A stretch of 64,000 bases of DNA from Kofleriaceae bacterium (GCA_015075455.1 JABTUH010000016.1:64001-128000); one strand, 5' to 3'. Positions 1 to 20,394 are shown, counted from the stretch's first letter. Notes: generated by a model from the sequence alone, not told the origin. A program made the numbers and translations.

Positions 1-174
1 ACCCACGGCGTCGCGCCGATCGTGACCCTCGGGTGAGCGTCGCGGCCGCGTCGATCCCGGCGTCGAGCGGCGCGCTGCCGTCGGCGGGCGGCGGGCCGGC
101 GTCGCCGCCCGGGACCACCGCCACCACGGTCGGGCTCGCGGCGTCGACCGTCACGCCCGGCGGCGGCTCGCCGG

Positions 175-1785
175 TCAGCCCGTCATCCGCGGTCGCGGCA
201 TCGGCCGGCGCCACCGCCGCGGCGTCGAGCGCGATCGCCAGCAGCCCGGCGTCGACGGTCGGCGTGGCGGCCCGCTCGCGCGCCAGCCCGCCACGTCCAC
301 CACCACCAGCAGCGCCACGACGAGGAGCGGAGCCTGGGCCGAAGCGGCGGAGCGGCGCCGGCCCCTGCGGACGGCGTCGCTGGCGACGACGACGGTGACG
401 ACGACGCGGACCGCGACCCGGACGCCGCGGACCACGACGCGGACGGCGTGACGCCGGACCGCGACGCGGACGCCACGGACGCCACGGACGCCACGGATGC
501 GCCGACACCGACGCCGCCGCCGACACCGACGCCGAGCCGGCCCGCCGTCGGCGCCCCGCGGGCAACGCCACCTGCCCCGGCCGCGCTGGACGCGCTGCGC
601 GGGCCGCCGCCGAGGGCAGCGCGCTCGCGCCCGGCGCCGCCACCACCGACGTCCGCGGCTGGGCTGCTGCCGCCGCCTGCGCCGCGCCGCCAGCGTCGCC
701 CAGCCGCGCGCCGCCTCCTGCGCTGCCGCGTCCGGCCGCCACGATGGCGTCGAGCCTGGCGCGGTCAGCGCCATCGACTTCATCGTCGCCGGATCGAGCT
801 CGGCGTCGCTGCCGGCGCCGGCGCCCGCGCCCACGCCGGCGCCGCCGCCTCCGCCGACCGCGAGCGGCTCTGCCTCGACCTTGCCCGCGTCCTCGCCCCA
901 CACCTCGGCGAGCCAGTCGGCGAGCTGACGCGCCGGCGCCGGCCCCGGATCGGCGGCGCGCGCCTCGACCAGGTAGCGATCGAGGGCCTCCAGCAGGTGC
1001 CGCGCGTCGGCGAAGCGCTCCGCCGGATCGCGCCGGGTCGCCCGCTCGATGACCTCGACCAGCGCCGGCGGCGCCTCGGGCAGCGGCGGCAGGACGCCGG
1101 CCCGCGTCGCCTCGAGCAGCTCGCCCTTGCTGCGGAAGCGCCGCACCCGCTGGCCGGCGACCATCTCCCACAGCACCAGGCCGAGCGCGTACAGGTCGGC
1201 GCGGGCGTCGGTGGGCTCGTAGCGCGCCTGCTCGGGCGCCATGTAGGCGACCGTCCCGCGCACGTCGCCGCCGGGATCGCCGGCCAGCGCGGCCACGCCG
1301 AAGTCGGTGAGCTTGACCTCCCCCGACCACGACAGGAGCACGTTGCGCGGCGTCACGTCGCGGTGGACCACCCCCAGCGGCGTGCCGTCGGGCGCGCAGC
1401 GGCGGTGGGCGTGATCGAGGGCCTGGCAGCACTCGGCGGCGACGAACGCGGCCAGGAGCGGCGACAGCGGCGCGCTGGCGCGGCGCAGGGTCTCGCCCAG
1501 GTCGCGACCCTCGACGTGCTCCATCGCCAGGAACGCGGCGTCGCCGACCCGGCCGAAGTCGAACACCGGCACGATGTTCTGGTGGTTGAGCGTCATCGAC
1601 AGCCGCGCCTCGCGCACGAACAGCTCGAGGAACGTGGTGTCGCCGGCGCGCTCCGGCCGCACCCGCTTGATGACCAGCCGCTTCTCGAGGCCGGCCACCA
1701 CCCGCCGCGCCAGGTAGATGTCGGCCATGCCGCCGCGCCCGAGCAGTCGGAGCAGCTCGTAGCGTCCGAGCACGGTCGCGGACAT
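175..1785 (-). CDS. Hanks-type Ser/Thr protein kinase; the C-terminal ~250 aa is low-complexity and its frame is uncertain
   Basis: The N-terminal catalytic domain reads MSATVLGRYELLRLLGRGGMADIY (Gly loop), HRDVTPRNVLL (catalytic loop), DFG and APE-like motifs. An ATG lies at 1785 and a GTG at 1794. Downstream of the kinase domain the ORF turns Arg/Val-rich and includes RGV x3 from a 9-bp tandem repeat, then a hydrophobic LLVVALLVVV segment near the end. The C-terminus is not reliable. Confidence 0.7.
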   Translation of the reverse strand: MSATVLGRYELLRLLGRGGMADIYLARRVVAGLEKRLVIKRVRPERAGDTTFLELFVREARLSMTLNHQNIVPVFDFGRVGDAAFLAMEHVEGRDLGETLRRASAPLSPLLAAFVAAECCQALDHAHRRCAPDGTPLGVVHRDVTPRNVLLSWSGEVKLTDFGVAALAGDPGGDVRGTVAYMAPEQARYEPTDARADLYALGLVLWEMVAGQRVRRFRSKGELLEATRAGVLPPLPEAPPALVEVIERATRRDPAERFADARHLLEALDRYLVEARAADPGPAPARQLADWLAEVWGEDAGKVEAEPLAVGGGGGAGVGAGAGAGSDAELDPATMKSMALTAPGSTPSWRPDAAAQEAARGWATLAARRRRRQQPSRGRRWWRRRARARCPRRRPAQRVQRGRGRWRCPRGADGGPARRRCRRRRRCRRIRGVRGVRGVRVAVRRHAVRVVVRGVRVAVRVVVTVVVASDAVRRGRRRSAASAQAPLLVVALLVVVDVAGWRASGPPRRPSTPGCWRSRSTPRRWRRPMPRPRMTG

Positions 1786-1832
1786 CCCCCGCACTATAGC
1801 GCGCCCGGTTGACCGCCTCGCGGGCCCGGCCG

Positions 1833-2903
1833 ATGATGAGGCGAGTGCGCGCCCTCGTCCTGGCCGCGGCCGGCCTCGTCGTCGCCGCCGTCGCCCCGCC
1901 CGGGGTGGCGCGGGCCGCGCCGGCCGCCGACCTCATCCTGTACTGGGCGCCGCCCGACGCGCCGGCGGTCGTGCGCACCCGCACCCGCGACGCCGCCGAG
2001 GCCAGCGGCGCCGCCTTCGTCGATCGCTCGCCGCCGCCGCCGCGCCCGGCCGACCCCACGCGCATCGCCGCCGCGATCACCGCCTACGACCAGCTCCGCT
2101 TCGACGAGGCGGTCGAGCTGCTCGATCAGGTCGCCGCCGAGCTCGACCGCACCGGCGCCGCCGGCCTCGACGTCGCCCGCCTCGCCGAGCTCTTCCTCTA
2201 CCGCGGCCTGGCCCGCATCCAGCTCGGCCAGCCCGAACGGGCGTGGGACGATCTCCTGGTCGCCGCCCGCATCGATCCGACCCGCGTGCTCGACCCGGTG
2301 CGCTTCCCGCCCCGCGCCATCGAGCAGCTCGAGCGCGCCCGCGCCGAGGTCGCCGCCGCCCCCCGCGGCGTCCTCCGCGTCACCGGCCCCGCCGGCTGCG
2401 TGATCTCGATCGACGGCGCCATCAGCGGCGACGGCCGCGCCGAGCTGCCGCACGGCGCCCACTGGATCGACGCCGCCTGCCCCGAGCACGCGCCGTGGGG
2501 CCGCCGCGTCGTCGTCGATCGCACCGCGGTCGAGGTCGTGGTCGGGCCCACGCCGCTCGTCCAGCACGACGACGACGCGGCGCTGGTCCAGGCCCGCGCC
2601 CTGGGCGCCGCCAGCGTGGTCGAGGTCGTCGTCCTCGGCGGCGCCGCCCGCGTCCGCCACCGCCGCGCCGACGGCCGCGAGCTGGCGCGAGCGCTGGTCA
2701 CCGTCGACGGCGAGGTGGTGGCCGCCACCGTCGACCGCCTGCTGCGCCCGCCGCCGATCCGGCGCGCCCCGTGGTACCGCTCGCGCTGGGCGTGGGCCGC
2801 CGGCGGCGCCGCGGTGGCGGCGGCGGTGCTGGTGCCGATCGCGCTGCGCGACACCGGGCCCGGCGATCGCGTCATCCGCCCCACGGGGTGGCCGCGGTGG
2901 TGA
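1833..2903 (+). CDS. hypothetical secreted protein with an N-terminal signal peptide, a TPR-like helical segment and a C-terminal TM helix
   Basis: Starts MMRRVRALVLAAAGLVVAAVAPPGVARA (signal-like). The ORF runs to a TGA at 2901-2903. It is divergent from the kinase, with only ~47 bp between the two starts. Composition is balanced, unlike the antisense frames. Confidence 0.55.
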   Translation: MMRRVRALVLAAAGLVVAAVAPPGVARAAPAADLILYWAPPDAPAVVRTRTRDAAEASGAAFVDRSPPPPRPADPTRIAAAITAYDQLRFDEAVELLDQVAAELDRTGAAGLDVARLAELFLYRGLARIQLGQPERAWDDLLVAARIDPTRVLDPVRFPPRAIEQLERARAEVAAAPRGVLRVTGPAGCVISIDGAISGDGRAELPHGAHWIDAACPEHAPWGRRVVVDRTAVEVVVGPTPLVQHDDDAALVQARALGAASVVEVVVLGGAARVRHRRADGRELARALVTVDGEVVAATVDRLLRPPPIRRAPWYRSRWAWAAGGAAVAAAVLVPIALRDTGPGDRVIRPTGWPRW

Positions 2904-4362
2904 GGGCGACGCCTCCCCCGGCCCGGCGCCGCGCCGGCGCGGTCGCGGGCCTCGCCGTGGCCGCCGGCGGCGGCCTCGCCCTCGCCGCGTGCGGCCCCGA
3001 CGACGTGGTCGTGGCGCCGGTCATCGACGGCCCGGCCGCGGGCAGCGACGCCGCGGCCTTCCCCGACCTCGACGAGCTGGTGATCACCCTCGCCCGCGCC
3101 GGCTCGACCGCCGATCGGCTGTCGGCCACCTTCACCCGCGGCCAGACCGTCGAGCTGCGCGGCGCGCCCGAGGGCGACGAGCTGGTCGTCCACCTCACCG
3201 GCCGCCTCGGCGGCCAGGAGGTGGCCTACGGCCGCACCTGCGCCTTCGCCCTGCGCGCCGGCGAGCCGCCGCCGGCGCCGCACCTGTGGTTCGCGCGCAC
3301 GGTCAAGTGGGGCGAGCTCGACGCCTCGCCGGCGCCGGTCCGCCGCGACGGCCGCGCCGTCGCCTACCGCGACGGCAGCGCCCTGTTCGTCGGCGGCCAC
3401 GACGCCGCCGGCGAGCCGGTGACCGCGGTCGAGCGCTTCGATCCGCGCGCCGGCGCGCTCACCACCGTCGCCGACCTGGCGCCGCGGCGGGCGCCGGTGG
3501 TGGCGAGCCTCGGCGACGGCCGCCTGCTCGTGGCCGGCGGGATCGACGGCGCCAGCGACACCGCGTCCGATCGCCTGGAGGTGCTGGAGCTCGACGTCAC
3601 CGGCGCCGGCCGCGTCGACACCTTCGTCGACCAGCGTCTGGCCCGCGCCGGCGCCACCGCCGTCACCCTGACCGACGGCCGGGTCGTGATCTTCGGCGGC
3701 GGCGCCGTCACCGGGCCGCCGCTGGCGGCGCCGGTCGAGATCGCCGCCGACGGCGCGACCGTCGCCGTGCGCGACCTGCGCGCGGCCATGGCCGTCCCCC
3801 GCCGCGGCGCGACCGCCACCCGGCTCTCCGACGACCTCGGCGCCCCGGTCCTCGTCTCCGGCGGCGTCGACCTCGACGGCCAGCCCGTGGCCCTGGCCGA
3901 GCTGTGGCGGCCGCTGCGCGAGGACTTCGCCGACCCGCAGGCGTTCGCGCCGGCGATGCGCGTGCCGCGCCACCGCCACGCCGCGCCCCGCATGCCCGAC
4001 GGCAGCGTGCTGGTGATCGGCGGCCTCGACGCCGCCGGCCAGCCGGTGCGCGCCCTCGAGCTGTTCACCCTCGACGGCGGCTTCGTCGACGCTGGCCTGC
4101 TGCCGCCCGGAGCCGGCGTCGTCGACGCCACGGTCACCGCCCTGCCCGACGGCCGCATCCTGGTCGCCGGCGGACGCGAGACCGCGGACGGCGAGCCGGT
4201 GCAGGGCGGCTTCATCGTCAACCTCGACCCCCTCGACGGCTCGGTCGACGCCATCAGCACCGACCGCCTCGAGCGCGTCCGCGCCGGCCACGCCGCCACC
4301 GCCCTGTGCGACGGCACGATCGTCGTGCTCGGCGGCACCGAGCTGGCCAGCCCGGTCGAGCG

Positions 4363-6245
<1,883 letters not shown>

Positions 6246-6385
6246 CGACGCCAGACGCCGCGAGCCGGGAGTGTGGCCGCCCTGGCCGGGTGTACGAGCG
6301 CTGCACAGCCCTGGGGGCAGGGTCCCTCGCCGGCACGACCGAACCCCGCGACGCGACAGGGCGGGCCGGTGGTACCGTGGTTGCA

Positions 6386-7075
6386 GTGCTCCGCGTCGTG
6401 ACCGTCCGGTTCGGGATCGCCGCCCTCGCCTTCGCCGCCCTCGCCGGCTGCCCGGTGGGCCACGGCGACGACGACGTCACCGAGGACGCCGGCGCCGACG
6501 GCGACGCCGACACCGGGGCCGGGGTGCGGGTGACCTGGGCGGTCCGGCCGGAGGTGCCCGGGCCGGCCTCGGCCGCCGTGACCGTGAGCGAGCTGCGCCT
6601 GCAGTGCAGCTCGCTGCGCCTCATCGGCGACGTCGCGCCGCCGGGCGACCCGCGCACCACGCGCGGCGCGATCGACCTGCGCTGGCGCCGCGACCAGGCG
6701 CCGATCCCGGTGGCGATGGCGAGCGCGCCGCCCGGGCTCTACTCGCGCCTCGAGCTGGGCGTCGGCGGCGCCGACGAGCACCTGACGATCAAGGGCGAGG
6801 CCACGGTCGGCGGCGTCACCCGGCCGTTCGAGATCGAGGACGAGCGGCGGCACGGCGTGACCCTGGCCCTGGCGCTGACGCTGGCGCCCGGACGGAGCGC
6901 GACGATCCCGGTCACGATCGACGTCGGCGTCGTCCTCGCCGCGGTGCCCTTCGCCGACCTCGACGTCGACGACGGCACCCTGGTCTTCGACGACGACGAC
7001 CCCCGCCTCGACGCGGTGTGGGCGGCGCTGGACCTCGCGATCACCGTGCCGCCGGTCGCCGGCGCCGCGCCCTGA
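6386..7075 (+). CDS. hypothetical lipoprotein
   Basis: GTG starts at 6386 or 6398. The signal with lipobox is VRFGIAALAFAALAGC. The product is acidic and balanced in composition. It is divergent from the sigma54 activator. Confidence 0.5.
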   Translation: MLRVVTVRFGIAALAFAALAGCPVGHGDDDVTEDAGADGDADTGAGVRVTWAVRPEVPGPASAAVTVSELRLQCSSLRLIGDVAPPGDPRTTRGAIDLRWRRDQAPIPVAMASAPPGLYSRLELGVGGADEHLTIKGEATVGGVTRPFEIEDERRHGVTLALALTLAPGRSATIPVTIDVGVVLAAVPFADLDVDDGTLVFDDDDPRLDAVWAALDLAITVPPVAGAAP

Positions 7076-7081
7076 TCCGGC

Positions 7082-8815
7082 CTACGCCGCGCCCACCGGC
7101 CCGGCCTGGGGCCCGCGCACCAGCTTGCCGGGGAGCGCGCCGGTCGGCTCGCCGCCCTCGACGATGGCCACGCCCCGGCACAGGGTCAGGTCGTAGCCGC
7201 GCGCCCGCTGCACCAGGCGCCGCCCGCCCGCCGGCAGGTCGTAGGCGACCTCGGGATCGGCGAAGGCGAGGTGGTCGTAGTCGATGACGTTGACGTCGGC
7301 GCGGTAGCCGGGCGCGAGCACGCCGCGGTCGCGCAGGCCGTAGAACCAGGCCGTGTCGCGGGTCTGGCGCTGGACCACCAGCGGCAGCGGCAGGCGGTCG
7401 CCGCGGCGGCGATCGCGGGTCCAGTGGGTGAGCATGAACGTCGGCATGCCGCCATCGCAGATCGCGCCGCAGTGGGCGCCGGCGTCGGACAGGCCCATCT
7501 TGATCCGCGGGTGCAGGTGCAGCTCGCGGGTCATCGACAGGTCGCCGTAGGCGTAGTTGAACAGCGGGAAGTACATGAGCGCCTTGCCGTCGCGCGCGCA
7601 CAGCGCGTCGTAGGCGACCTCGAGCGGCGGTTTGCCCAGGCGCTTCGCCCGCGCCGCCACGCTGTCGTCGGCGGTCGGCTCGTAGTCGATGGCGTCGCCC
7701 TGGGGGTACATCTTGGAGAACGCGCGCATGATGAAGTTGCCGAACGGCCCGGCGTCGCCGGGGGCCTCGGCCAGGATGCGGGCCCGGACCTCGGGGCGGC
7801 GCAGCGCGGCCAGGAGCTCGGCGCGCGGGCCGCGCGCCAGCTCGACGAACGTGGGGTGGGTGGCGAACGGGTGCGCGGTCAGCTCCCAGCCCATCAGCAC
7901 GCCGATCGAGCGGCCGGCGGCCTGGGCCCAGACGTCGAGGCCGTCCGCGGCGCAGGCGTCGAGCTGGCGCAGGCACTCGCGCCACAGCTCGGGCGCCCAG
8001 TCGGTCTGGTTGAGGTTGAAGACGACGCGCACGCCGAGGGCGGCCAGCTCGCGCATGTAGCCGAAGGCCTTGGGGGCGTCGGTGTGCTCGATGACGTTCT
8101 GGAAGACGCCGTGGCCGGCGCGGCGCATGGCGCGGCCGATCTCCATGAGCTCGGCGACCGCGGCGTGGGTGCCCGGCACCAGCTCGCCGTCGATGGTCTT
8201 GTGCAGCGACGTGCGCGAGGTCGAGAAGCCGAGGGCGCCGGCGCGCAGGCCGTCCTCGACGATGCGGGCCATGGCCGCGACCTCCTCGGGCGAGGCGTCG
8301 ACCTCGTTGCCGCGCTCGCCCATGACGTAGGCGCGCACCGGGCAGTGCGGGACCTGGGTGCCGACGTCGAGGACGCGGGGCTGGGCGTCGAGCACGTCGA
8401 GGAACTCGGGGAAGCTCTCCCAGCCCCAGCGGATGCCCTCGTGCATCGCCGAGCCGGGGATGTCCTCGACGCCCTCCATGAGGCCGATCAGGTAGTCGTG
8501 CTTGTCGGGGGCGGCCGGGGCGAAGCCGACCCCGCAGTTGCCCATGATGACGGTGGTGCAGCCGTGCCACCCCGACGGCGTCAGGTACGGATCCCACGAC
8601 GCCTGGGCGTCGTAGTGGGTGTGCATGTCGACGAAGCCCGGGGTCACGATCTTGCCGCGGGCGTCGACCTCGCGGCGGCCGGGGCCGATCGCGTCGGCGC
8701 CGCCGGGCGCCGCCACCGCGACGATGCGCTCACCGTCGATCGCCACGTCGGCCTCGCGGCCAGGGGCGCCGGTGCCGTCGAAGACCAGGCCATTGCGGAT
8801 GACGACGTCGTGCAT
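7082..8815 (-). CDS. N-acyl-D-amino-acid deacylase (D-aminoacylase) family amidohydrolase
   Basis: ATG at 8815 gives MHDVVIRNGLVFDGTG, followed by GFVDMHTHYD (metal-binding HxH). Similarity to the D-aminoacylase family extends over ~575 aa. Confidence 0.8.
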   Translation of the reverse strand: MHDVVIRNGLVFDGTGAPGREADVAIDGERIVAVAAPGGADAIGPGRREVDARGKIVTPGFVDMHTHYDAQASWDPYLTPSGWHGCTTVIMGNCGVGFAPAAPDKHDYLIGLMEGVEDIPGSAMHEGIRWGWESFPEFLDVLDAQPRVLDVGTQVPHCPVRAYVMGERGNEVDASPEEVAAMARIVEDGLRAGALGFSTSRTSLHKTIDGELVPGTHAAVAELMEIGRAMRRAGHGVFQNVIEHTDAPKAFGYMRELAALGVRVVFNLNQTDWAPELWRECLRQLDACAADGLDVWAQAAGRSIGVLMGWELTAHPFATHPTFVELARGPRAELLAALRRPEVRARILAEAPGDAGPFGNFIMRAFSKMYPQGDAIDYEPTADDSVAARAKRLGKPPLEVAYDALCARDGKALMYFPLFNYAYGDLSMTRELHLHPRIKMGLSDAGAHCGAICDGGMPTFMLTHWTRDRRRGDRLPLPLVVQRQTRDTAWFYGLRDRGVLAPGYRADVNVIDYDHLAFADPEVAYDLPAGGRRLVQRARGYDLTLCRGVAIVEGGEPTGALPGKLVRGPQAGPVGAA

Positions 8816-8934
8816 CCGCCCATGGTGCGCGAGCCGGCCGCCCCCGTGCAAGCCCGCCGTGCCCCGCCGGGGTCCGCCGCCGCCGTCGTCCCCGCCCCGC
8901 GCGCGCGGCGCGACGGCGGTGGTAGGGTCGCGCG

Positions 8935-10100
8935 GTGGCACGACGTCACGCCCACCGCGCCGGCGACTGGTCGTCGGTGGCGGTGCGCCTCGACGAGATC
9001 ATCAGCGCCCACGGCGGCGCCGATCCGTTCGAGGAGGCGCTCACGCTCCTGGTCGCGCGGCTCGCCCACGAGGCCAGCGGCGGACCGCCGGCCGGGTTCG
9101 TCGGCGGCGCCGCCGGCGCGCCGGCGCGGGTGAACGAGCTGGTCGCGGCGGCGGCGGCGCGGTGGCCGGGCGTCGTCGAGCCCGGCCGCACCACCGGCCT
9201 CGGCGGCGCGGCGCTGGCGCGGTGCGCCGCCGTGCTCGACGGCGTGGCGCTGCTCGGCGACGAGCTGGTCGGCCTCGACGCCGTCTTCGAGCACCTGGTG
9301 GCCCACGTCGCCAAGGGCCAGAAGGGGCAGTTCTTCACGCCCCGCCACGTCATCGCCGAGGTGGTCGCGATGCTGGCGCCGCGGCCGGGCGAGCACGTCG
9401 TCGATCCGGCCTGCGGCTCGGGCGGCTTCCTGTGGCACGCCCTGGCGGCCGCGCCCGGCTGCGTGGCGTGGGGGTTCGACGTCGATCCGCGCGCGGTGCG
9501 GGTGGCGCGAGTCATGCTCGCCGCCCACGGCGCGCCGGTCGGGCGGGTGGCCTGCGTCGACAGCCTGCGCCGGCCGGCGCTCGAGGACCACGCCCGCGGC
9601 CATGGCGCGCCCCGCGGCTTCGACGTCGTCCTGACCAACCCGCCGTTCGCCGGCGACGTCGGCCGCGCCTTCGACGGCGCCTACGAGCTGGCGCGCGGGC
9701 GGGTCGAGCGCGACGTGCTGTTCGTCGAGCGCGTGGTCGAGCTACTGCGCCCGGGCGGGCGCTACGCCATCGTCCTGCCCCACAACAAGGTCGGCGGCGC
9801 GACCTGGAGCCACGTCCGGCGCTGGCTCCTGGCGCGGACCGAGGTGGTGGCGGTGCTCGGGCTCGGCCGCCCCACCTTCCTGCCCCACACCAGCCAGAAG
9901 GCGTGCGTCGTGATCGGCCGGCGGCGCGCCCGCGCCCTGGCGGCGCCGCCCGCTGGCGAGCGGGTGCTGTTCTTCGTCAGCGAGCGCGCCAGCGGGACGC
10001 CCGCGGCATGGCTGGTGCGACGCGAGCGCGCGATCGATCACGACCTGGCGCGGCTGGCCTGGCGGTGCGGGCCTGCTCGCGCGCGGCGGCGCGGGCGGCG
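8935..10100 (+). CDS. N6-adenine DNA methyltransferase, gamma-class (HsdM/TaqI-like); the 3' end is uncertain
   Basis: Motif X/I reads GQFFTPRHVIAEVVAMLAPRPGEHVVDPACGSGGFL and motif IV reads VLTNPPF. Beyond ~10050 the frame degenerates into poly-Arg inside a GC-rich direct-repeat tract (10080-10200). Confidence 0.7.
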
Positions 10101-10439
10101 ACGGCGACGGCGGCGCGGGCGCGGCGACGGCGACGCGGGCGCGGGCGGCGACGGCGGCGCGGTGGCTGGGCGGCGCGCGCCTGCGGCCCGCGCGATGACC
10201 GCGCCCGGGCGCCGCCGACCGCGTGATCACGCGGCGGGTCGGCGAGTCGGCCCCGCGCTGGTGCTGGCCCCGAGCGCTCGACCCGCGGCGCGCGGTGATC
10301 GTGGCCGGCGCCCGCCGCCTCGGCGAGCTGGTGGAGTGGTGAGCGACACCGTCGACGCCCGCGCCTGCCGGCGGACGCGCCGGTGCTGGTGCTCGACACC
10401 GGCACGCCTGGGAGGCTGGTGCAGGCTCCGCCACGCCCG

Positions 10440-11016
10440 GTGACGGGCGCGCGACCTGGGCAGCGCGGCGGCGCCTGGCGCGGGCGACGTCATCATCTCG
10501 CGCCCAGGCTGTACTGCGGCAGGTCGCGCTCGTCGACGACGACCTGTTCGCGCGGGCGCCGGGCGGCAACCTGGTGGTGGCCTCGACCGAGTTCTACGTG
10601 CTGCGGCGGCGAGGGGGCGGCAGCGGCGCGGGCGCCGACCGCACGACCGGCGGGACTGGCGGCAGCCGCGAGGCGAGCGGTGCCGGCGGTGCCGGCGCGG
10701 ATCGCGGTCGGCGCGCGCCGCCGCCCTCGACCCGGCGGGCCTGGTGCCGTACCTGCTGTCGGCGCCGGTGCAGGCCGCGCTCGCCGCCGGCCAGGAGGGC
10801 GGACACCACCCCCGCTTCGAGCGCGCCCAGCTCGAGGACCTGCCGGTGTCCGACGCCCTGGTGCGCCGCGCGGCGGCGATGGCGCGCGCGGTCCGCGACC
10901 AGGCCGCGAGCTTCGGCGCCGCCGTGGCCGGCGGCCGCGCGCTGATCGCCACCGTCGAGCGCGAGCTGGCGCCACCACCGCGGCGACGCCCCACGCCGCG
11001 CCGCTCGACCCGGTAA
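10440..11016 (+). pseudogene. HsdS-like target-recognition-domain remnant, split over at least two frames
   Basis: Frame 1 has GDVIISRPG (cf. the HsdS GDILISRIG motif). Frame 2 continues with VALVDDDLFARAPGGNLVVASTEFYVLRRR (cf. ...ISSNLFVIRP). Frame 1 from 10744 gives LLSAPVQAALAAGQEGGHHPRFERAQLEDLPVSDALVRRAAAMARAVRDQAASFGAAVAGGRALIATVEREL, which resembles the coiled-coil conserved region of S subunits. No single intact ORF spans this. Confidence 0.4.
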
Positions 11017-11139
11017 CGGCTCGTTACCCGCGCGGGGTGCCGTGGTCACGGACCGTTACCTGGACGCTGGCGCTCCGGCGCGAAGCCGGTGAGATCGCAC
11101 GCGGCGACGACGGGCACGCACGCTGCAAACGTTGCGCGC

Positions 11140-12333
11140 ATGCGCGCCCTCGCCACCCTCCCCCTCCTCGCCTCCTCCCTGGTCGCCGCCTGCGGCGACG
11201 CCCCCGTCGATCCCGCGCCGGACGCCGGCGCGCCGCTCCTCGCGCCGCCGCCGCCCGGCGCCGGCCGCCAGCTCGCCATGACCGTCGCCATCGCGCCCGG
11301 CCAGGAGATCGAGCAGTGCCAGTACGTGATCGTCGACGAGGCGATCGAGATCTCGCGGTTCGAGCACGCCTACACCACCGGCTCGCACCACCTCCTGCTC
11401 TACCAGACCGCGCTGGCGCCCGCCGCGGTCCCGCGCGAGCGCTTCGACTGCACCGGCGCGCCGCTCACCGAGCTGGGCGTGTCGGGGATCGCCTACGCCG
11501 CCCAGGTCCCCGCCGGCGAGCTCGCCTATCCGGCCGACGTCGCCCTGCGCGCGGCGGCGGGCTCGGTGCTCCTGGTCCAGACCCACTACCTCAACGCCGG
11601 GGTCGCCGCGCTCGACGCCGAGGTCCGCCTCAACCTGTGGTACGCGCCGGCGCCGGCGGCGATCGAGGCCGGCACGCTGTTCTTCTACGACTGGGCGATC
11701 GTGGTGCCGGCGGGCGGGACCGCGACCGCGCACATGCGCTGCCAGCTCCCGGGCGACGTCCAGCTCCTGTTCGGGATGTCCCACATGCACCGCCGCGGCG
11801 TCGGCTACCGCGCCGTGCTCGAGCCGGCCGACGGCGGCGCGCCGGTCGAGCTGTTCGCGACCACGGCGTGGGAGGGCGTCGAGCCCCTGCGCTACCAGCC
11901 GGCGCGGCCGGCCGGCGCGGGCGCGGTCATCGACTACCGCTGCGACTTCGCCGGCGAGCCCGGGCGCACGATCATCGAGGGCCCGTCGGCCGACGCCAAC
12001 GAGATGTGCATGTTCATCGCCTCCTACTACCCGCGCCTCGACCCGGCGACCGAGCTGTGCGCCGGGCCGGGCTCGGGCCCGGTCTTCACCGGCGCCCGGA
12101 CCTGCGCCGAGACCGTGAGCTGCGTACGCGCCGCGGGCGCCGACGAGGTCGCCGCCGAGACCTGCCTGGTCGACACCTGCGCCGGCTCGAGCCCGGCGGC
12201 GGTCGAGCTGATGAAGTGCATCAACTTCCAGTGCGGCGAGGCGTGCGCGGTCCCCGGCACCGCGGCCTGCGACCAGTGCGTGATCAGCACCTGCGGCGAG
12301 CCGTTCGGCGACTGTCAGGCCGCGAGCTGCTGA
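11140..12333 (+). CDS. lipoprotein of a copper-monooxygenase-like (PHM/DBH-like His-motif) family with a Cys-rich C-terminus
   Basis: ATG at 11140; lipobox LVAAC|G. His motifs HHLLLY, HYLNAG and HMHRRG are present, and the C-terminus carries ~14 Cys. It is paralogous to the 48527..49579 product (HHLNLF, HYVNAS, HFHSRG, YYPR). Confidence 0.6.
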   Translation: MRALATLPLLASSLVAACGDAPVDPAPDAGAPLLAPPPPGAGRQLAMTVAIAPGQEIEQCQYVIVDEAIEISRFEHAYTTGSHHLLLYQTALAPAAVPRERFDCTGAPLTELGVSGIAYAAQVPAGELAYPADVALRAAAGSVLLVQTHYLNAGVAALDAEVRLNLWYAPAPAAIEAGTLFFYDWAIVVPAGGTATAHMRCQLPGDVQLLFGMSHMHRRGVGYRAVLEPADGGAPVELFATTAWEGVEPLRYQPARPAGAGAVIDYRCDFAGEPGRTIIEGPSADANEMCMFIASYYPRLDPATELCAGPGSGPVFTGARTCAETVSCVRAAGADEVAAETCLVDTCAGSSPAAVELMKCINFQCGEACAVPGTAACDQCVISTCGEPFGDCQAASC

Positions 12334-12573
12334 GGCCGCGAGCTGGGCCCGCGAGCCGCCGAGGCCGCGACCTGCCGAGGCCGGGGCGAGCTCCGGTGGC
12401 CCTCCGGGGTGGCCGGATTCCGGCCGGGTGGCCGGATCCCGGCCGGCCTCGCGTCCGGATCTCGGACACCGTAGCCGCAAGCCCGCGAGATCGGTAGCAC
12501 GCCCGCCTGGTCCGGCCCTTGCTCTGCCCCCGCGCGAACCACACCCGCGCCGAGCGCGGAACGGAGAGCGCAC

Positions 12574-15507
12574 ATGGGCTGGACGAACTGGATGACGATG
12601 ACGCTGGTGCTGGCCGCGGTCGCGGGCTGCACCGAGGGAGTGATCGTGGGCGGCGGCGGCGGGTCGCGGTACGACCGCGAGGTCAAGGGCGGCAACCTCC
12701 ACCACGCGGCGGTCGAGGGCGCGAGCCGGACCGACCTCGATCTCGGGCGCGTCCTGGCGAGCGCGCCGGCGCTGGCGCCCGCGGTGGGGCCGCTGGCGGC
12801 GGGTGACTTCACGATCACCACCGCCACCTCGCGCGGGGCGACCGGGCGACCGCTGATCCACGCGATGGCCCAGCAGCACGTCGGCGGCGTGCCCATCGTC
12901 GACAGCCACCTCTACCTGACGGTGGCGCCGGGGCCGGGCCAGGGCGAGGGCCAGCTCGTGGCGTCGAGCTACCGCCTCTTCCACGGCGCCGACGTCGACG
13001 TGACCCCGTCCGTCGATCGCGCCCGGGCCGAGGCCCGGGCCCGCGCGGTGCTGCGCGCCCCGGCCGACGCCGCCGTGCGCGAGGCGCGGCTGGTGATCCG
13101 CGAGCGGAGCGGCGCGCTCGCCCTGGTGTGGGACGTGACCCTCGATGGTCACGACGGCCGCGCCCTGATCCACGCCAGCGGCCCGCGCGCCGGCACCGCC
13201 GACGTGCTCGACGATCGGGTGTACGAGACCAGCGGCACGGTGTCGGCGTGGGTCGCGGTCGGCGGCGCCCCCGGCGCCGGCGGCGAGCCGCGGCTGGTCG
13301 CCCAGGCCGACACGATGGTCCTCGCCGGCGTGGTGTCGACCTCGACCGCCGGCGACGGTCGCTACCTCCTGGCCGCGCCGGCCGGCTCGATCGTGACGAC
13401 GACCGTCGCCGGGCTCGCGGCGCTGGTCACGGACGTCGGCGGGCTCGCGGTCGAGGCCTCGGCCCCGGCCGCGCCGGAGGTCGACCTGACCCTGGGCGGC
13501 GCCAGCGAGCGCGAGCTGGCCATGACCACCGCCTACCACTTCACGACCGCGGCGCGCCGCTTCCTGCTCGCCAACGGCGTCCCCGCCAGCGTGCTGGGCG
13601 CGCCGCTCGCCACCCGGGTCAACCTGGCCTCGACGTGCAACGCCTACTACTCGCCGGCGGGGCGCACGATCAACTTCTTCCGCGCCGGCGGCGGCTGCAA
13701 CAACAGCGCCGAGGCCAGCATCATCGCCCACGAGTACGGCCACTTCGTGGACGACACCTTCGGCGGCATCACCGACGGCGGGCTGAGCGAGGGCTGGGGC
13801 GATCTGCTGGCCTGCTTCCTCCTCCGCGATCCGGTGATCGGCGGCGATCTGTTCCACTCGAGCGGCCAGCTCCGGACCTGCGACAACGACTACCGCTACC
13901 CGCGCAGCGGCCACGACAGCGTCCACGAGCTGGGGCAGGCGTGGTCCGGGTTCGCCTGGCACGCCCGCGCCGGCCTCATGGCCGCGCACGGCGCCGAGGC
14001 CGGCGAGGCCCGCGCCCGCGCCCTGATCATGCCGTCCCTGGTCACCAACGCGCCCGACATCCCGGCCGCGGTGCGCGAGGTCTTCCTGCGCGACGACGAC
14101 GATGGCGACCTGCGCAACGGGACCCCGAACTGGGACGTGCTCCTGGCCGCGGCCGAGCGCCACGGCCTGCGCTTCGCCGTCGACGTCGACCACGGCCCGC
14201 CCGGCGCCGTCACCGATCTGATCGCGACCGCGGTCACCCCCACCACCGTCACCCTGCGCTGGACCGCGCCCGGTGATGACGGCGATCACGGCACCGCCGC
14301 GCGCTACGAGCTGCGCTGGGCGCTCGAGCCCATCGACGAGGCCAGCTTCGCCGCCGCCGCTCACCTGCCGGCCCCGGCGCCGCTGCCGGCGGGTCACCTC
14401 CAGACCACGACCGTGTCGGTGCCGCCGGTCGAGCGGCTCTACCTGGCGCTGCGCGCCATCGACGAGCTCGACCACGCCGGCGCGCTCTCGAACGTGATCG
14501 AGGTCGAGCTGCCGGCGCCCCGGGTGATCTGGAGCGACGGCGCCGAGGCCGGCCTCGGCCCGTGGCAGGCGACCGGGCTGTGGCACGTCAGCGAGCGACG
14601 GGCGGCGGCGGGCCAGCGCGCCTTCCGCTACGGCGACGACGCCACCGGCACCTACGACACGCCCGGCCGGGCCAACCAGGGCGCGCTGCTGTCGCCGATC
14701 ATCGACCTCGACGCGGCCGTCGCGCCCCGCCTGACCTGGCGCGAGCATGTCGACGTCGAGGAGTCGACGACCTACGACCTGCTCCGGGTCGAGGTCTTCG
14801 ACGTCGACGATCCTTCGATCGCGGTCAGCGGCGAGAAGCTCCACGGCCGCACCGCCGGGTTCACGCCGCGCCTCGTCGACCTGAGCGGGCTGGTCGGTCG
14901 GCGGGTCCGGATCCGCCTGTGGTTCGACACCGTCGACGCGGCGATCAACGACGGCGAGGGCTGGTACGTCGACGAGCTGCGCGTGCTCGGCGACCAGGGG
15001 CCGGCGCCGGAGCCGCCCGCCGGCGGCCGCCTCCTCGTCAACGAGCTGCTCGCCGATCCGCCGGCCGGCTACGACGCCAGCGGCGACGGGATCGCCAGCC
15101 CCACCGCCGACGAGTTCGTCGAGCTCGTGAACATCGGCGACCGGCCGCTCGACCTCGGCGGGGCCACCATCACCGACGACGTCGCGGTGCGCGGCACGTT
15201 CCCACCCGGGACCGTGCTGGCCCCGGGCGAGGTCCTGGTCCTGTTCGGCGGCGGCGTGCCGGCGCTGCCCGGCGTCCGCACCATGGTCCTCGGCCCGCTC
15301 GCGCTCAACAACGGCGGCGACACCGTGACCATCCGCGGCGCCGGCGGCGAGGTCCTGGCCCAGCTCGCCTACGGCAGCGCCGCCGGGGACGACCAGTCGC
15401 TCACCCGCGCGGTCGACCACGACCCCGAGGCCCCGCTCGTCAAGCACCGCACGCTCTCGTCCGCCCCGGCCTCACCCGGCCGGCGCGCCACCGACCCCGT
15501 GCCCTGA
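12574..15507 (+). CDS. secreted zinc metalloprotease lipoprotein (gluzincin HExxH...E, M4/M36-like) with an FN3-like segment and a C-terminal lamin-tail domain
   Basis: ATG at 12574, with RBS GGAGAG 8 nt upstream. Lipobox LAAVAGC. The metal site is HEYGHFVDD...SEGWGD. The lamin-tail-domain-like C-terminus reads LLVNELLADP...EFVELVNIGDRPLDLGGATI. Confidence 0.85.
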   Translation: MGWTNWMTMTLVLAAVAGCTEGVIVGGGGGSRYDREVKGGNLHHAAVEGASRTDLDLGRVLASAPALAPAVGPLAAGDFTITTATSRGATGRPLIHAMAQQHVGGVPIVDSHLYLTVAPGPGQGEGQLVASSYRLFHGADVDVTPSVDRARAEARARAVLRAPADAAVREARLVIRERSGALALVWDVTLDGHDGRALIHASGPRAGTADVLDDRVYETSGTVSAWVAVGGAPGAGGEPRLVAQADTMVLAGVVSTSTAGDGRYLLAAPAGSIVTTTVAGLAALVTDVGGLAVEASAPAAPEVDLTLGGASERELAMTTAYHFTTAARRFLLANGVPASVLGAPLATRVNLASTCNAYYSPAGRTINFFRAGGGCNNSAEASIIAHEYGHFVDDTFGGITDGGLSEGWGDLLACFLLRDPVIGGDLFHSSGQLRTCDNDYRYPRSGHDSVHELGQAWSGFAWHARAGLMAAHGAEAGEARARALIMPSLVTNAPDIPAAVREVFLRDDDDGDLRNGTPNWDVLLAAAERHGLRFAVDVDHGPPGAVTDLIATAVTPTTVTLRWTAPGDDGDHGTAARYELRWALEPIDEASFAAAAHLPAPAPLPAGHLQTTTVSVPPVERLYLALRAIDELDHAGALSNVIEVELPAPRVIWSDGAEAGLGPWQATGLWHVSERRAAAGQRAFRYGDDATGTYDTPGRANQGALLSPIIDLDAAVAPRLTWREHVDVEESTTYDLLRVEVFDVDDPSIAVSGEKLHGRTAGFTPRLVDLSGLVGRRVRIRLWFDTVDAAINDGEGWYVDELRVLGDQGPAPEPPAGGRLLVNELLADPPAGYDASGDGIASPTADEFVELVNIGDRPLDLGGATITDDVAVRGTFPPGTVLAPGEVLVLFGGGVPALPGVRTMVLGPLALNNGGDTVTIRGAGGEVLAQLAYGSAAGDDQSLTRAVDHDPEAPLVKHRTLSSAPASPGRRATDPVP

Positions 15508-15514
15508 CCTCGGA

Positions 15515-15535
15515 GCGTGTGAAGGAATCACACGC
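15515..15535. terminator. candidate bidirectional hairpin terminator between convergent genes
   Basis: GCGTGTGA-AGGAA-TCACACGC is a perfect 8-bp stem with a 5-nt loop. It sits between the protease stop (15507) and the VWA gene stop (15593). Confidence 0.35.
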
Positions 15536-15592
15536 CCTGGTCTCGGTGGAGGCTGGCGAGTCCCGTCGCCGGGCCACGGCGGCCGCCGCAGC

Positions 15593-17061
15593 TCACGGGC
15601 CGTAGAGCGTGCCCTGCGGGGCGCGCTCCTCGATCAGCCGCAGCATCGCCGCCGCCAGCTCGACCTCGGGCGTGAGCGTCGGATCGGCGAGCGCGGCGGC
15701 GTCGGCGGCGAAGCGGTCGTGGGCGGCGCGCATGATCGTGGTGGCGAGCGCCGGATCACCCGCGTACGAGGCCGCGGCGTCGTGCATGCCCGACACCAGG
15801 AGGGCCAGCGCCGTGGTCCGGGCCGTCGCCTCCTGGGCGAACCAGTGGCCGCGCTCGTCGAGGGGCGCGCCGTCGCGGCTCGCGCGCAGCGTGGTCACCC
15901 GCGGCACGCCGGCCGGGTTGACCCACCGCAGCTCGGCGTCGGCGTAGGCCAGCGCCAGGGCGCCCTCCTCGGCCTCGACCAGCGACACCAGCAGGGCGCC
16001 GCGGCGCTTCGACAGGAACACGGTCGCGACCTCGAGCCGGGGCTCCTCGCCGAAGCCGACCGGAAAGCCGTAGCCCTGCTCGATCGCCAGGCCCGCGCTG
16101 TGGCGGACCTCGACGCCGAGATCGTAGGCGATGGGCGACGCGAACCACGGCCACTCGTCGGCCATGAAGCTCGCCACGTCCTCGGCCCGCTGCATGCTGA
16201 AGGCGTTGGCGCCGCGGACCTTGGCCATGCTCTGCAGCACCTCGGGGCCGACGCCGAGGCCCAGGGCCAGGACCGAGATGTGGACGCCGTCGGCGGCGCC
16301 CCGGCTGACCAGGTCGTCGAACGCGGTGGGCGAGGTCGGGCCGACGTTGGGCTGGACGTCGGTGAACAGCACCACCCGCACGTGCGGGCGACCGGCGGCC
16401 CGCGCCTGCCGCCCCAGCTCGTAGGCGCGCACCAGCCCGCCGTGCATGTCGGTCGCCCCGCCCTCGCGCAGGCCGTCGACGACGCCCCGGATCGCGGCCT
16501 TGTCGGCGCCGCTGGTCAGGCCCAGGGGCGTGCGCACCGAGCTGCCGTAGGTGACGATCGCGACCTGATCGCCGCCGTCGATCGCGTCGACCAGCCCGTG
16601 CATCAGCCGCCGCGACAGGTAGCCGGGAGTCGGGTACTCCTCGCCGCCGCTGCCCCAGCCCATGGAGCCCGACACGTCGACCGCGAAGATGAAGGTGGTG
16701 GCCGGGCGCTGGAACAGCTCGGGCACGACGTTGGACGACAGCCCGACCTGCAGCCAGCCCCGCGGGTCGCCGTCGCGGTCGGGGGCCACCCCCAGCGCGG
16801 TGCGCAGGCACAGGGTGTCGTTGCACGGCGCGCCGGTCAGCCCGAGGTCGTGCTCGGCGAACATGGCCTCGACCAGGAGCGCGGCCGCCGGCGGGATCTG
16901 TCCGTTGGCGATGAGCTCGCGGGCCAGCTTCAGGTCCTTGACCCCACCCGGGGTCGCGCCGAAGTCGCCGCCGCCGGAACCGTGGAGGTCGCCACCGCAG
17001 GCCGCGGCCAGGGCGAGGAGCGGGGCCAGGAGGATGGAACGCGCGACGCGGTGGTGTCTCA
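15593..17061 (-). CDS. von Willebrand factor type A (VWA) domain lipoprotein
   Basis: ATG at 17061 gives MRHHRVARSILLAPLLALAAAC|GG (lipobox). The VWA MIDAS motif is FIFAVDVSGSMG... Confidence 0.8.
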
Positions 17062-17226
17062 TGCGCCCTCCCCCTCGCACCCGCCGTACCAGCCCACCGC
17101 GGGACGGTCCGCGTACTTGGCGGCCGCGGGTCGAGCGCGTGGCCCGGGGACAGGACATCGATGTCGCGCTCGCGGTCGGGGGCCCCGCCGCCGTGCGCGC
17201 CCTCGCCGCCGGATATACTCGGCGCG

Positions 17227-20200
17227 ATGAGCGAAGGCCCAGGCGCGAGGTCCTCCCGGCGTGGTTCGGCCACCGCACGCCGCCGGCGCAAGGTGGCGTG
17301 GGCGCACCGCCTGCGCCGGGTCGGGATGGCGTGGCAGAACGCGATCGAGATCGTCCGCGCCGGCCGGCTGACCGCCCCCTACGGCGCGCCGTTCGCGATC
17401 GCCCACGAGACCCCGATCTACAAGCTCCGGCACTACCGCGCCGACGACGTACCGGCGCGCGGCGCGCCGCTCCTCCTGGTGCCGCCGCTGATGGTCGCCT
17501 CCGAGGTCTACGACATCGCGCCCGACATCAGCTCGATCAACTACCTGACCCGGGCCGGCGTCGACGTCTGGCTCACCGACTTCGGCGCCCCCGAGCGCGA
17601 GGCCGGCGGCATGGAGCGGACCCTCGACGATCACGTGCGGGCGGTGTCCGACGCCGTCGACCGGGTCCGCGCCGCCACCGGCCGCGACGTCCACCTCGCC
17701 GGCTACTCCCAGGGCGGCATGTTCGCCTACCAGGTGGCGGCCTTCCGCCGCTCCGCCGGCCTGGCCTCGGTCATCACCTTCGGCAGCCCGGTCGACATCC
17801 ACCGCACCGTGCCCATCGCCGACCAGCTCGTCGAGCGCATGGTCGCCGGGCTGCAGCGCGCGGTCACCCTGCCCCTCGATCACATCGACGGCCTGCCCGG
17901 CTTCCTGACCTCGACCGGCTTCCGGCTGCTGAGCGCGCGCAAGGAGATCGGCCAGCTCTTCGACTTCGTCAGCAAGCTGCACGATCGCTCGGCGCTGGAG
18001 AAGCGCGAGGCCCGCCGCCTGTTCCTCGGCGGCCAGGGCTTCGTGGCCTGGCCGGGGCCGGCGCTGCGCAAGTTCATCGACGAGATCATCGTCGCCAACC
18101 GCATGACCTCGGGCGGCATCGTCATCGACGGCCACGCCGTGACCCTGGCCGACATCAGCTCGCCCATCCTCTACTTCCTGGGCGAGCGCGACGAGATGGG
18201 CCGGCCGGCGGCGGTGCGCGGCATCCGCAAGGCGGTGCCGGCGGTCGAGGCGCTGTACGAGGTCCCGGTCAAGGCCGGCCACTTCGGCCTGGTGGTGGGC
18301 TCGACCGCGCTCGCGATCACCTGGCCGACCGTGGTCGAGTGGATCCGCTGGCGCGACGGCGACGGCCCGCCGCCGGTGCGCGCGGTGCCGGTGCCGACGC
18401 GGGACGCCGGCGGCGCCGCCGGGCGCGGCGCCCGGGACGAGGACGACGACGGTCGCGACGAGGCCGACGACGAGGCCGACGCCGGCGTCGACGACGACGA
18501 CATCGAGGCCGCGTTCGGCGAGCTGCAGTTCGACCTCGAGCTGGTGCAGGACGTGATCGGCAACACCGCGCGCGCCGTCCTCGACCGCATCGGCGACGTC
18601 AGCACCGATCTCGGCGACTACCTCGACAACCTGCGCTGGCAGGTGCCGCGCCTGCGCCGCCTGCGCAACCTGCGCGACGACACCGCGATCTCGCTGGGGC
18701 GGACGCTGGCCGATCAGGCCCGCACCATCCCCGAGCGCACGTTCTTCCTGTGGAAGGACCGGGCCTTCACCTACGCCGAGGCCAACCGCCGGGTCGACGC
18801 CGTTGCCCGCGGCCTCATGCAGTGCGGGGTCCGCCCCGGGCTCCGGGTGGCGGTGCTGATGGGCGGGCGGCCCAGCTACTTCTCGGCGGTGACCGCGCTG
18901 TCGCGGATCGGCGCGGTGGCGGTCCTGATCGCCCCCGCCACCCCCGACGCCGCGCTCGGCCGCGCCTTCGACGTCGGCGAGTGCGAGGCCGTGATCGCCG
19001 ATCCCGAGCTGGCGCCGCGGGTGCGGGCGGTGTGGGCCGGCAAGCTGCTGGTGCTGGGCGGCGCCCACGACGCCCGCGCCCTGCCCGCCGGCGCCGTCGA
19101 CCTCGAGGCCATCGATCCGGCGGCGCAGCCCCCGCCCGCCTGGTACCGTCCGGATCCCGGACGCGCTCGCGATCTGGCCCTGGTCTTCGTCTCCGGCGGC
19201 GCGTTCTCGGCGCCGCGGGCCAGCCGCATCACCAACCGGCGCTGGGCGTTCTCGGCCCTGGGCGCCGCCGCCACCTGCACCCTGTCCAACCGCGACACCG
19301 TCTACTGCTGTCTGCCGCTCCACCACCCGACCGCGATGCTGGTCGCCGCCGGCAGCGCCCTGGCCGGCGGCGCCCGCCTCGCCCTGGCCTCGGAGTTCCG
19401 CCCCGACGTGTTCTGGCGCGAGGTCCGCCGCTACGGCGTGACCGTCGTGTACTACGCGGGCGAGCTGTGCCGGCCGCTGGTGCTGGCGCCGCCGATGCTG
19501 GGCGAGCACAACCACCCGATCCGCCTGTTCGCCGGCTCGGGCATGCGCCCCGATCTGTGGCGCAAGCTGCTCGACCGGTTCGGCCCGGTCGGCGTGCTCG
19601 AGTTCTACGCCTCGACCGAGGCCTCGGCGGTGCTGGCCAACGCCTCGGGGCAGAAGGTGGGCGCCGTGGGGCGCCCGCTGCCGGGCAGCCCGGAGCTGGC
19701 GATCGCCGCCTACGACTTCGACGCCGACGAGCTGATCCGCGACGCCGCCGGCCGGCTGGTGCGCGCCCGCGTCGACGAGCCCGGCATGCTGGTGACCCGG
19801 CTCGACTCGCCGCGCGGCATCGCCGACGTCGCCCACCTGCCGCCGGCCCGTCTGCTGCGCGACGCCTTCGCCCCCGGCGACACCTGGTTCTTCTCCGGCG
19901 ACATCCTGACGATCGACGGCGACGGCGACTACTGGTTCGTCGATCGCTGGGGCGACACGATCCGCACCGCCGCCGGACCGGTCACCACCCGCCGCATCGA
20001 GGACGCGCTGCACGGCGTGCCGGCGGTGCTGGCATGCGCGGCGGTCGGCGTGACCATGACCGGCGAGCCGGGCGAGGTGCCGGCCGCCGCGTTCGCGCTC
20101 ACCGCCGGCGCCGCGCTCGATCTCGCCGCGCTGTCGGCGGCGGTGGCGACTCTGCCCGAGCACATGCGCCCGCGCCGCCTGCGCCGGGTCGAGGGCATCC

Positions 20201-20394
20201 CCATGACCGACGGCTTCCGCCCGCTCAAGAAGCCCATCCAGGATCTCGGCTTCGCCGACGGCCCCGACGTGTGGGCGTGGGACGCCGCCACCGCCAGCTA
20301 CCGCGGCACGGCGCGCGCCGCCGCCGCCGAGCCCGCCGCCACCGCCGAGCCCGCCGCCGACCGCGTGGGCCCGTCCACCGACCTGCTATCCTGA
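17227..20394 (+). CDS. bifunctional protein: N-terminal PhaC-like alpha/beta hydrolase (Ser in the lipase box) fused to an acyl-AMP ligase (FadD/FAAL-like adenylation domain)
   Basis: N-terminal ~400 aa: LLLVPPLMVASEVYDIAPDISSINYLTRAGVDVWLTDFGAP and a GYSQGG nucleophile elbow (PHA-synthase-like; the PhaC lipase box is GxCxGG). C-terminal ~600 aa: AMP-binding motifs (TFFLWKDRAFTYAEAN, YFLGERD..., LVFVSGGAFSAPR-like core, TGD-like DTWFFSGD, GDTIRTAAG). No carrier-protein domain is visible. An ATG at 17227 lies 8 nt after a TATACT element. Alternative in-frame starts: GTG at 17161 (MSRSRSGAPPP...) and ATG at 17326 (MAWQNAIEIVRAGRL...), the latter sitting just before the hydrolase domain. Confidence 0.8.
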   Translation: MSEGPGARSSRRGSATARRRRKVAWAHRLRRVGMAWQNAIEIVRAGRLTAPYGAPFAIAHETPIYKLRHYRADDVPARGAPLLLVPPLMVASEVYDIAPDISSINYLTRAGVDVWLTDFGAPEREAGGMERTLDDHVRAVSDAVDRVRAATGRDVHLAGYSQGGMFAYQVAAFRRSAGLASVITFGSPVDIHRTVPIADQLVERMVAGLQRAVTLPLDHIDGLPGFLTSTGFRLLSARKEIGQLFDFVSKLHDRSALEKREARRLFLGGQGFVAWPGPALRKFIDEIIVANRMTSGGIVIDGHAVTLADISSPILYFLGERDEMGRPAAVRGIRKAVPAVEALYEVPVKAGHFGLVVGSTALAITWPTVVEWIRWRDGDGPPPVRAVPVPTRDAGGAAGRGARDEDDDGRDEADDEADAGVDDDDIEAAFGELQFDLELVQDVIGNTARAVLDRIGDVSTDLGDYLDNLRWQVPRLRRLRNLRDDTAISLGRTLADQARTIPERTFFLWKDRAFTYAEANRRVDAVARGLMQCGVRPGLRVAVLMGGRPSYFSAVTALSRIGAVAVLIAPATPDAALGRAFDVGECEAVIADPELAPRVRAVWAGKLLVLGGAHDARALPAGAVDLEAIDPAAQPPPAWYRPDPGRARDLALVFVSGGAFSAPRASRITNRRWAFSALGAAATCTLSNRDTVYCCLPLHHPTAMLVAAGSALAGGARLALASEFRPDVFWREVRRYGVTVVYYAGELCRPLVLAPPMLGEHNHPIRLFAGSGMRPDLWRKLLDRFGPVGVLEFYASTEASAVLANASGQKVGAVGRPLPGSPELAIAAYDFDADELIRDAAGRLVRARVDEPGMLVTRLDSPRGIADVAHLPPARLLRDAFAPGDTWFFSGDILTIDGDGDYWFVDRWGDTIRTAAGPVTTRRIEDALHGVPAVLACAAVGVTMTGEPGEVPAAAFALTAGAALDLAALSAAVATLPEHMRPRRLRRVEGIPMTDGFRPLKKPIQDLGFADGPDVWAWDAATASYRGTARAAAAEPAATAEPAADRVGPSTDLLS

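Follow-up and report, generated by a model that had tools for sequence, protein, structure and literature searches.

A frameshifted methyltransferase gene in a Kofleriaceae assembly is very probably an intact fusion of an adenine methyltransferase and a half-size specificity module

Does a DNA methyltransferase gene whose specificity region is broken over three reading frames record the decay of a restriction-modification (R-M) system, or a fault in the assembly that contains it? The question is raised by positions 8935–11016 of a 64,000-nucleotide (nt) stretch of Kofleriaceae bacterium DNA (GCA_015075455.1, JABTUH010000016.1:64001–128000), which was analysed as a whole and is called the window here. 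A preliminary description had read the locus as an intact HsdM-like N6-adenine methyltransferase followed by a frameshifted HsdS-like region, and had proposed either a decaying type I-like R-M locus or a pair of modification (M) and specificity (S) genes disrupted by assembly indels. We find it very probable that the organism carries one intact gene of ~690–700 codons in which M is fused to a target-recognition domain (TRD), that the frameshifts are an error patch at 9991–10717, and that the product is likely a solitary AhdI-like adenine methyltransferase.

One gene, broken in one assembly and uninterrupted in two others

In the window (GC content 75.7%), the gene stands on the plus strand as an open reading frame (ORF) of 502 amino acids (aa) at 8935–10443, a second of 90 aa at 10744–11016, and out-of-frame pieces. 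The first ORF is identical to NCBI protein MBE7453556.1 ('N-6 DNA methylase [Kofleriaceae bacterium]'), encoded on a 215,686-nt contig of a metagenome-assembled genome (MAG), and the second is MBE7453557.1 (locus tag HS111_33250, 'hypothetical protein'), a C-terminal fragment of the same gene. The first ~350 residues are clearly a gamma-class N6-adenine methyltransferase: the ORF matches the Pfam families N6_Mtase (E = 9.7e-27) and Eco57I (1.4e-7), its M domain matches the PADLOC model MTase_I (2.8e-45), and motif I (VVDPACGSGGFL) and NPPF lie at 9397–9432 and 9637–9648. The M domain is apparently active-site-complete. The preliminary description was thus right about the enzyme but not about its extent, which it gave as ~370 intact residues; the N-terminal helical region and catalytic core are undisturbed only to residue 352 (8935–9990).

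Beyond this point, fragments of S-subunit-like motifs are found in each of the three frames. Plain tblastn was uninformative, since it joined all the pieces in a single gapped frame, and in its place we used a custom frameshift-aware protein-to-DNA alignment of three fused homologues (P0011, P0005 and P0008), which revealed at least five frame changes between ~10177 and 10712 before a clean last piece at 10714–11016 (67% identity). The same switches are visible in a plot of third-codon-position GC, which stays at 0.9–0.97 within the fragments, so that the reported splitting of S/TRD signatures over three frames is confirmed. Also confirmed is a GC-rich repeat tract between the two parts, which Tandem Repeats Finder resolved as 3.9 copies of a 24-nt period at 10061–10156, encoding a low-complexity linker between M and TRD.

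A route to other assemblies of the same organism was provided by P0210, a 303-aa 'partial' protein that belongs to the family of separate specificity partners described below and that shares the idiosyncratic insertions and C terminus of the window's gene in a single frame. It comes from a Myxococcales MAG, GCA_023382815.1 (the twin assembly), which, a few patches apart, matches the window at ~99.97% identity. Two of its contigs, L090 (aligned to window positions 2–10152, and carrying an identical amidohydrolase neighbour) and L003 (10123–30394), together cover 2–30394, and when joined they yield an uninterrupted ORF of 702 aa with no stop. A third NCBI assembly (a 665,094-nt contig) encodes P0362, an uninterrupted M–linker–TRD fusion of 688 aa that is 100% identical to the merged twin protein outside a linker of ~43 residues; P0362, P0210 and the window's 90-aa ORF fall into one cluster at 90% identity. 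The predicted fusion ORF is therefore supported twice, by the merged twin contigs and by P0362, although its linker sequence is uncertain. As reconstructed from these two sources, the gene spans 8935–11016 with a GTG start, placed opposite Met1 (MAKRH...) when homologues are aligned, and a TAA stop at 11014–11016; it would encode an HsdM-like gamma-class N6-adenine DNA methyltransferase, a Gly/Ala-rich linker and a single HsdS-type TRD ending in a long helix. The corrected sequence brings back both a family-conserved SERAGKDARGRLVRD..DHDL segment and conserved TRD residues. Of the proposed M–S pair broken by assembly indels, the indels are borne out by the two intact assemblies and the pair is not, there being one fused ORF of ~690–700 aa; correction gives a single ORF, an outcome that the preliminary description had named as a refutation, but an M–TRD fusion rather than the unrelated gene that it had envisaged.

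Comparing the window base by base with L090 and L003 showed that the disagreement is confined to a few patches. Outside them, only 7 isolated substitutions occur in ~28.5 kb (0.025%), with none in the 5.3 kb of 4629–9990 and one in the 10.3 kb of 10718–21016. The patch at 9991–10717 (727 bp), in contrast to a background expectation of 0.18 differences, holds ~54 by BLAST and 64 by MAFFT (Poisson P = 1e-112), and it contains every difference in the gene, with 0 in 8935–9990 and 0 in 10718–11016. In around half of the differences the window lacks a single base, nearly always a G or C, and many substitutions place T/A in the window where the twin has C/G; the methylase gene has at least 20 separate indels distributed across 700 bp, chiefly outside the repeat. 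The patch begins inside the conserved end of the M core, where the window reads SERASGTPAAWLVRRERAIDHDLARLAW and the twin reads SERAGKDARGRLVRDASGAIDHDLGAAG, as does the family. Three further patches lie at 29–872 (48 differences), inside a gene for a 663-aa kinase (<1–1793, minus strand); at 4526–4628 (16 differences), in the C-terminal end of a sigma-54 activator (4254–6245, minus strand); and at 26973–27141 (10 differences). The methylase patch has a GC content of 81.6% and the patches overall 82–86%, compared with 76–77% in their surroundings. The frameshifts very probably stem from base-calling or assembly errors in the MAG, in and beside the extremely GC-rich repeat.

Error patch against decay, mixed populations and phase variation

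If the specificity half had instead been frameshifted in the strain itself, leaving a truncated methyltransferase, the frameshifts that stand in the window sequence, the annotation of the broken pieces as separate proteins by NCBI and the lack of an R gene nearby would all be accounted for. Such genuine pseudogenisation is nonetheless very improbable, and the comparison with the sister genome excludes it: a neutral pseudogene could not have reached ~8% divergence while 28.5 kb of flanking sequence differ by 0.025%. Moreover, the damage starts at 9991 in the conserved M core and not at the S boundary, identical-looking patches disrupt unrelated genes, third-position GC in the fragments keeps to 0.9–0.97, the differences lean toward lost G/C and C/G-to-T/A changes, and two other assemblies are intact at every frameshift position. 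The decaying type I-like R-M locus of the preliminary description is accordingly refuted, with two intact assemblies, damage restricted to a 727-bp patch and unrelated genes hit in the same way.

The repeat itself invites two other explanations. One is that the population contains a sub-population with a hypervariable or rearranged linker and TRD, from which the assembler made a mosaic consensus; each of the three assemblies has its own reading of the linker repeat, and the twin assembly breaks exactly there. This too we regard as very unlikely, given that outside the linker the other two assemblies have exactly the same TRD, that what marks the window is the loss of single bases from unique coding sequence and not the presence of alternative alleles, and that the same type of defect occurs in other genes that have no repeat. 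The second supposes regulated expression, either by programmed frameshifting or by phase variation in the specificity domain, with the GC-rich repeat as the switch. Other bacteria are known to have phase-variable hsdS genes, and here a tandem repeat does sit between the M and TRD parts. A repeat unit of 24 nt is a multiple of three, however, and homologues lack such a tract; the indels, at least 20 and mostly outside the repeat, are too numerous and too widely scattered over 700 bp for this explanation, which we reject as having next to no likelihood.

Several points weigh against reading the gene as an intact fusion interrupted by errors. The merging of the twin contigs depends on a 30-nt exact overlap between the end of L090 (window 10152) and the start of L003 (10123), which lies inside the repeat. 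The linker (~10060–10215) appears in different frames in the two other assemblies, GGAGGDGDGGAGAG... in one and AAARAATATAARARA... in the other, which rejoin afterwards; at least one of the two is thus also wrong in the linker, and the exact sequence and the repeat number are uncertain. The repeat has a GC content of 91% and both twin contigs end within it, and the disagreement in frame means that no assembly can be trusted there. The comparison at the DNA level involved the twin assembly, and the third assembly was compared as a protein (P0362). The lost bases are only modestly enriched in homopolymer runs (66% versus 52% expected), a bias so weak that the sequencing platform cannot be deduced from it. 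That the differences are errors is something we infer from the disagreement with two other assemblies and from the integrity of the reading frame, not from reads. Finally, the enzymatic activity, oligomeric state and target sequence of the methyltransferase are predictions.

With the frameshifts in the S region attributed to an error patch, they carry no biological meaning, and no account of R-M decay should be built on them. The public annotation is affected as well: MBE7453556.1 (502 aa) is a chimera that leaves the true frame after residue 352, and MBE7453557.1 is a fragment. Because further indel-rich patches break other genes on the contig, pseudogene counts or calls of 'gene loss' made from this assembly are unreliable.

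Elsewhere in the window, three stretches (53276–54457, 61639–64000 and 29891–32310) either have no clear codon-position periodicity in GC or switch frame rapidly on one strand, and the first two contain no ORF of 100 aa or more that has a coding-like signal. All three may represent further error patches or non-coding DNA. By arithmetic, the 51,730-nt contig of the twin assembly should end near window position 61.8 kb, beside one of them.

A specificity module with a single TRD

What the C-terminal part of the fusion is became visible only once intact homologues were used, together with profiles and structure. Searches of Pfam and NCBIfam with the broken pieces returned nothing for the S region, and Pfam Methylase_S found no match even on intact homologues. 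In split relatives the module is a separate protein of ~225 aa, whose family comprises 806 clusters, with 'hypothetical protein' as every source name shown, and has no Pfam domain and no NCBIfam model. A profile of 24 members of this partner family, by contrast with the broken pieces, gave significant matches to the HsdS structures 5ybb_D and 3okg_A (E = 2e-6), in an alignment that takes in the TRD and the beginning of the helix, and the family matched the PADLOC model Specificity_I at 5e-14. The AlphaFold model of one homologue, P0121 (predicted local distance difference test score, pLDDT, 84.9; predicted template modelling score, pTM, 0.79), has a TRD rich in beta structure and, after it, a helix of 33 residues, and the top ranks in a Foldseek search with this model were taken by the PacII S subunit (1.6e-9), BsaXI S, HsdS, Esub1, M.TaqI and CamA, the E values for the PacII, BsaXI and HsdS S subunits running from 1.6e-9 to 2e-6.

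The module consists of one TRD and one helix and covers only half of the solved S subunits; split relatives have a version of ~225 aa, and the one here, with an insertion counted in, reaches ~270 aa. The type I-like S region that the preliminary description had proposed therefore holds as S-type similarity and fails as a classical S subunit, which has two TRDs: with its single TRD the specificity part is a half-S, of the AhdI kind and not of the classical type I kind.

When the corrected protein is mapped onto the window, the module starts at 10217–10291 with a conserved N-terminal motif (GRVITRRVGELGPALVLAPERFDPRR) that is garbled in the window sequence. The TRD core (GSAKRRLAPGDVIISRLRPYLRQVALVDD ... 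ASTEFYVLRRR; 10459–10612), which aligns to 5ybb_D and 3okg_A, is split between window frames 1 and 2. It is followed by a 38-aa Gly-rich insertion inside the TRD (10613–10725; alignment A1, row P0210) that is organism-specific and common to all three assemblies, P0362 included. The tail of the gene is free of errors (10718–11016) and holds the end of the TRD (QEGGHHPRF, 10792–10818) and the long C-terminal helix (10849–10968), placed by reference to helix H188–220 in the model of P0121.

In the family alignment A1, residues L18, P20, E21, P25 and R27 are invariant. They lie in the N-terminal motif L..LAPERFDPRR (P0121 residues 12–27), which is invariant in 24 diverse members and has an AlphaFold pLDDT below 50 in isolation; it may be the element by which the S module docks onto M.

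The closest parallel among known systems, M.AhdI, is the type I-like M2S2 methyltransferase of a type II R-M system from Aeromonas hydrophila; as here, it combines an HsdM-like M with a half-S of one TRD and a helix, a likeness that we draw from published description and organisation and not from sequence comparison. In M.AhdI, each S of ~25 kDa is half a classical S, and the enzyme recognises the symmetric site GACN5GTC (PMC2878638). The systems differ in that M and S are fused in one chain here and in that AhdI-like systems have an adjacent cognate restriction endonuclease, of which there is none at this locus and none in the whole myxobacterial clade.

Other enzymes resemble the fusion in part. 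Classical type I R-M systems (S structures 5ybb, 3okg and 1yf2) share the Pfam N6_Mtase family, the TRD fold and the core motifs, but have two TRDs where this gene has one TRD and one helix, and they have an HsdR, which is lacking here from about −9 to +19 kb and in the contexts of five relatives; against the hsdM equivalog model TIGR00497 the M domain scored 23.5 bits, compared with a cut-off of 242.75. PacII M1M2S (7vru) and BsaXI S (8w0p) come closest in structure to the specificity module (Foldseek E = 1.6e-9 and 1.7e-6), yet their S proteins are separate two-TRD subunits of complete restriction systems and sequence identity is only 17%. M.TaqI and CamA of Clostridioides difficile, the latter an orphan enzyme, unite a catalytic and a recognition domain in one polypeptide, as the fusion does, and their TRD folds match at E ~1e-3; they are monomers without the long S-type C-terminal helix, and their catalytic domains belong to other subfamilies.

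Among NCBIfam models, the one that scored best for the M domain was MAD2 of the MADS system (NF047738, 2.2e-38; PADLOC mad2, 8.4e-37). We rejected membership of MADS on score and gene content: NF047738 has a cut-off of 720 bits and the M domain reaches 132, PADLOC MTase_I scores higher, and no other mad genes are present among the neighbours, where the sole PADLOC match among proteins without an assignment is a generic Ser/Thr kinase (mad6) 7 kb away.

As to how the fusion might work, we infer dimerisation, target symmetry and biological role by analogy. Two chains would pair through their C-terminal helices, as suggested by M.AhdI M2S2 and by engineered half-S type I enzymes; a symmetric bipartite site would then be read by the two TRDs, half by each, with each catalytic domain methylating one adenine, one per strand. 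An alternative mode would be monomeric, in the manner of M.TaqI or CamA.

Myxobacterial loci without a restriction partner

The genes on either side of the methylase are ordinary ones. Upstream and divergent is an Amidohydro_3 family amidohydrolase of 577 aa (7082–8815, minus strand), whose exact protein occurs in the twin assembly with the Pfam Amidohydro_3 assignment, and downstream is a 414-aa ORF (11089–12333, plus strand), whose counterparts at the related loci L001 and L002 have weak or faint matches to Pfam Cu2_monoox_C. Other neighbours are LTD and VWA proteins. The lack of a nuclease nearby, already remarked upon in the preliminary description, is upheld: the precomputed Pfam annotation of the twin's genes and a PADLOC scan gave no recognisable nuclease or helicase gene from ~9 kb upstream to 19 kb downstream.

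To place the locus among its relatives, we scanned one genome per species and found 171 loci, the closest 31 of which are from myxobacterial MAGs. Most M relatives are ~400 aa long, and a few reach 589–619 aa with a C-terminal extension; the family layout is a ~400-aa M with a ~225-aa half-S, or both fused, the split genes lying 2–3 nt apart. No helicase or nuclease neighbour was found in six contexts (window and twin, L001, L002, L004/5, L006/7 and L008/9), in which the M and half-S pair or fusion sits among genes such as those for the amidohydrolase, recA, alaS, ftsX and kinases. Both flanking genes of the window are shared with L002 and the downstream one also with L001. That R is missing characterises the myxobacterial clade as a whole and does not point to recent decay.

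More distant loci (41–55% identity) come from cyanobacteria, Pseudomonadales, Planctomycetota, Chloroflexota, Acidobacteriota and Acetobacter. At 25 of them a conserved gene of 250–274 aa lies divergently upstream of M; it occurs at none of the 31 myxobacterial loci and not in the window. Its product has a divergent, restriction-enzyme-like fold, and its ~1,150 clusters are all annotated 'hypothetical'. With this small restriction-enzyme-like gene, the distant loci have the layout of AhdI-type three-gene R-M systems. In other phyla, the half-S family is thus linked to an unannotated protein that represents a lead to a candidate nuclease.

Such a methyltransferase with a half-size specificity module, split or fused, set among housekeeping genes and lacking a restriction partner, is widespread in Myxococcota. 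At no myxobacterial locus is a nuclease within reach, synteny with L001 and L002 is partial, and conservation of the TRD tracks that of M (47–76% identity for the TRD, 58–78% for the M domain). The role of the enzyme is likely to be that of an epigenetic or self-marking methylase rather than defence. We also consider, more tentatively and as a possibility that falls short of an even chance, that this is a lineage-wide restriction-less M and half-S methylase with conserved specificity in Polyangia and other Myxococcota, of a status like that of CcrM or Dam, and derived from a widespread but undescribed three-gene type II R-M system, to which the 250–274-aa family would contribute an equally uncharacterised nuclease. 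Literature searches on myxobacterial methylomes and orphan methylases turned up nothing on this M and half-S family. Its modest interest lies in an unannotated half-S partner that has been kept without a nuclease across myxobacteria.

In 4 of 5 independent contexts, the M and half-S locus has a Ser/Thr kinase gene no more than a few kb away (<1–1793 on the minus strand in the window, 1–5285 in L001, 11318–14656 in L004 and 6243–7787 in L006), and the kinase in the window matches the PADLOC models PD-T4-6 (4e-68) and mad6 (5e-54). Myxobacterial genomes encode very many Ser/Thr kinases, and unrelated genes lie between kinase and methylase here, so that the proximity is probably due to chance.

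The window also contains two adjacent tRNA genes, Lys-CTT and Arg-TCG (21332–21508, minus strand), which were its sole Rfam and ARAGORN matches.

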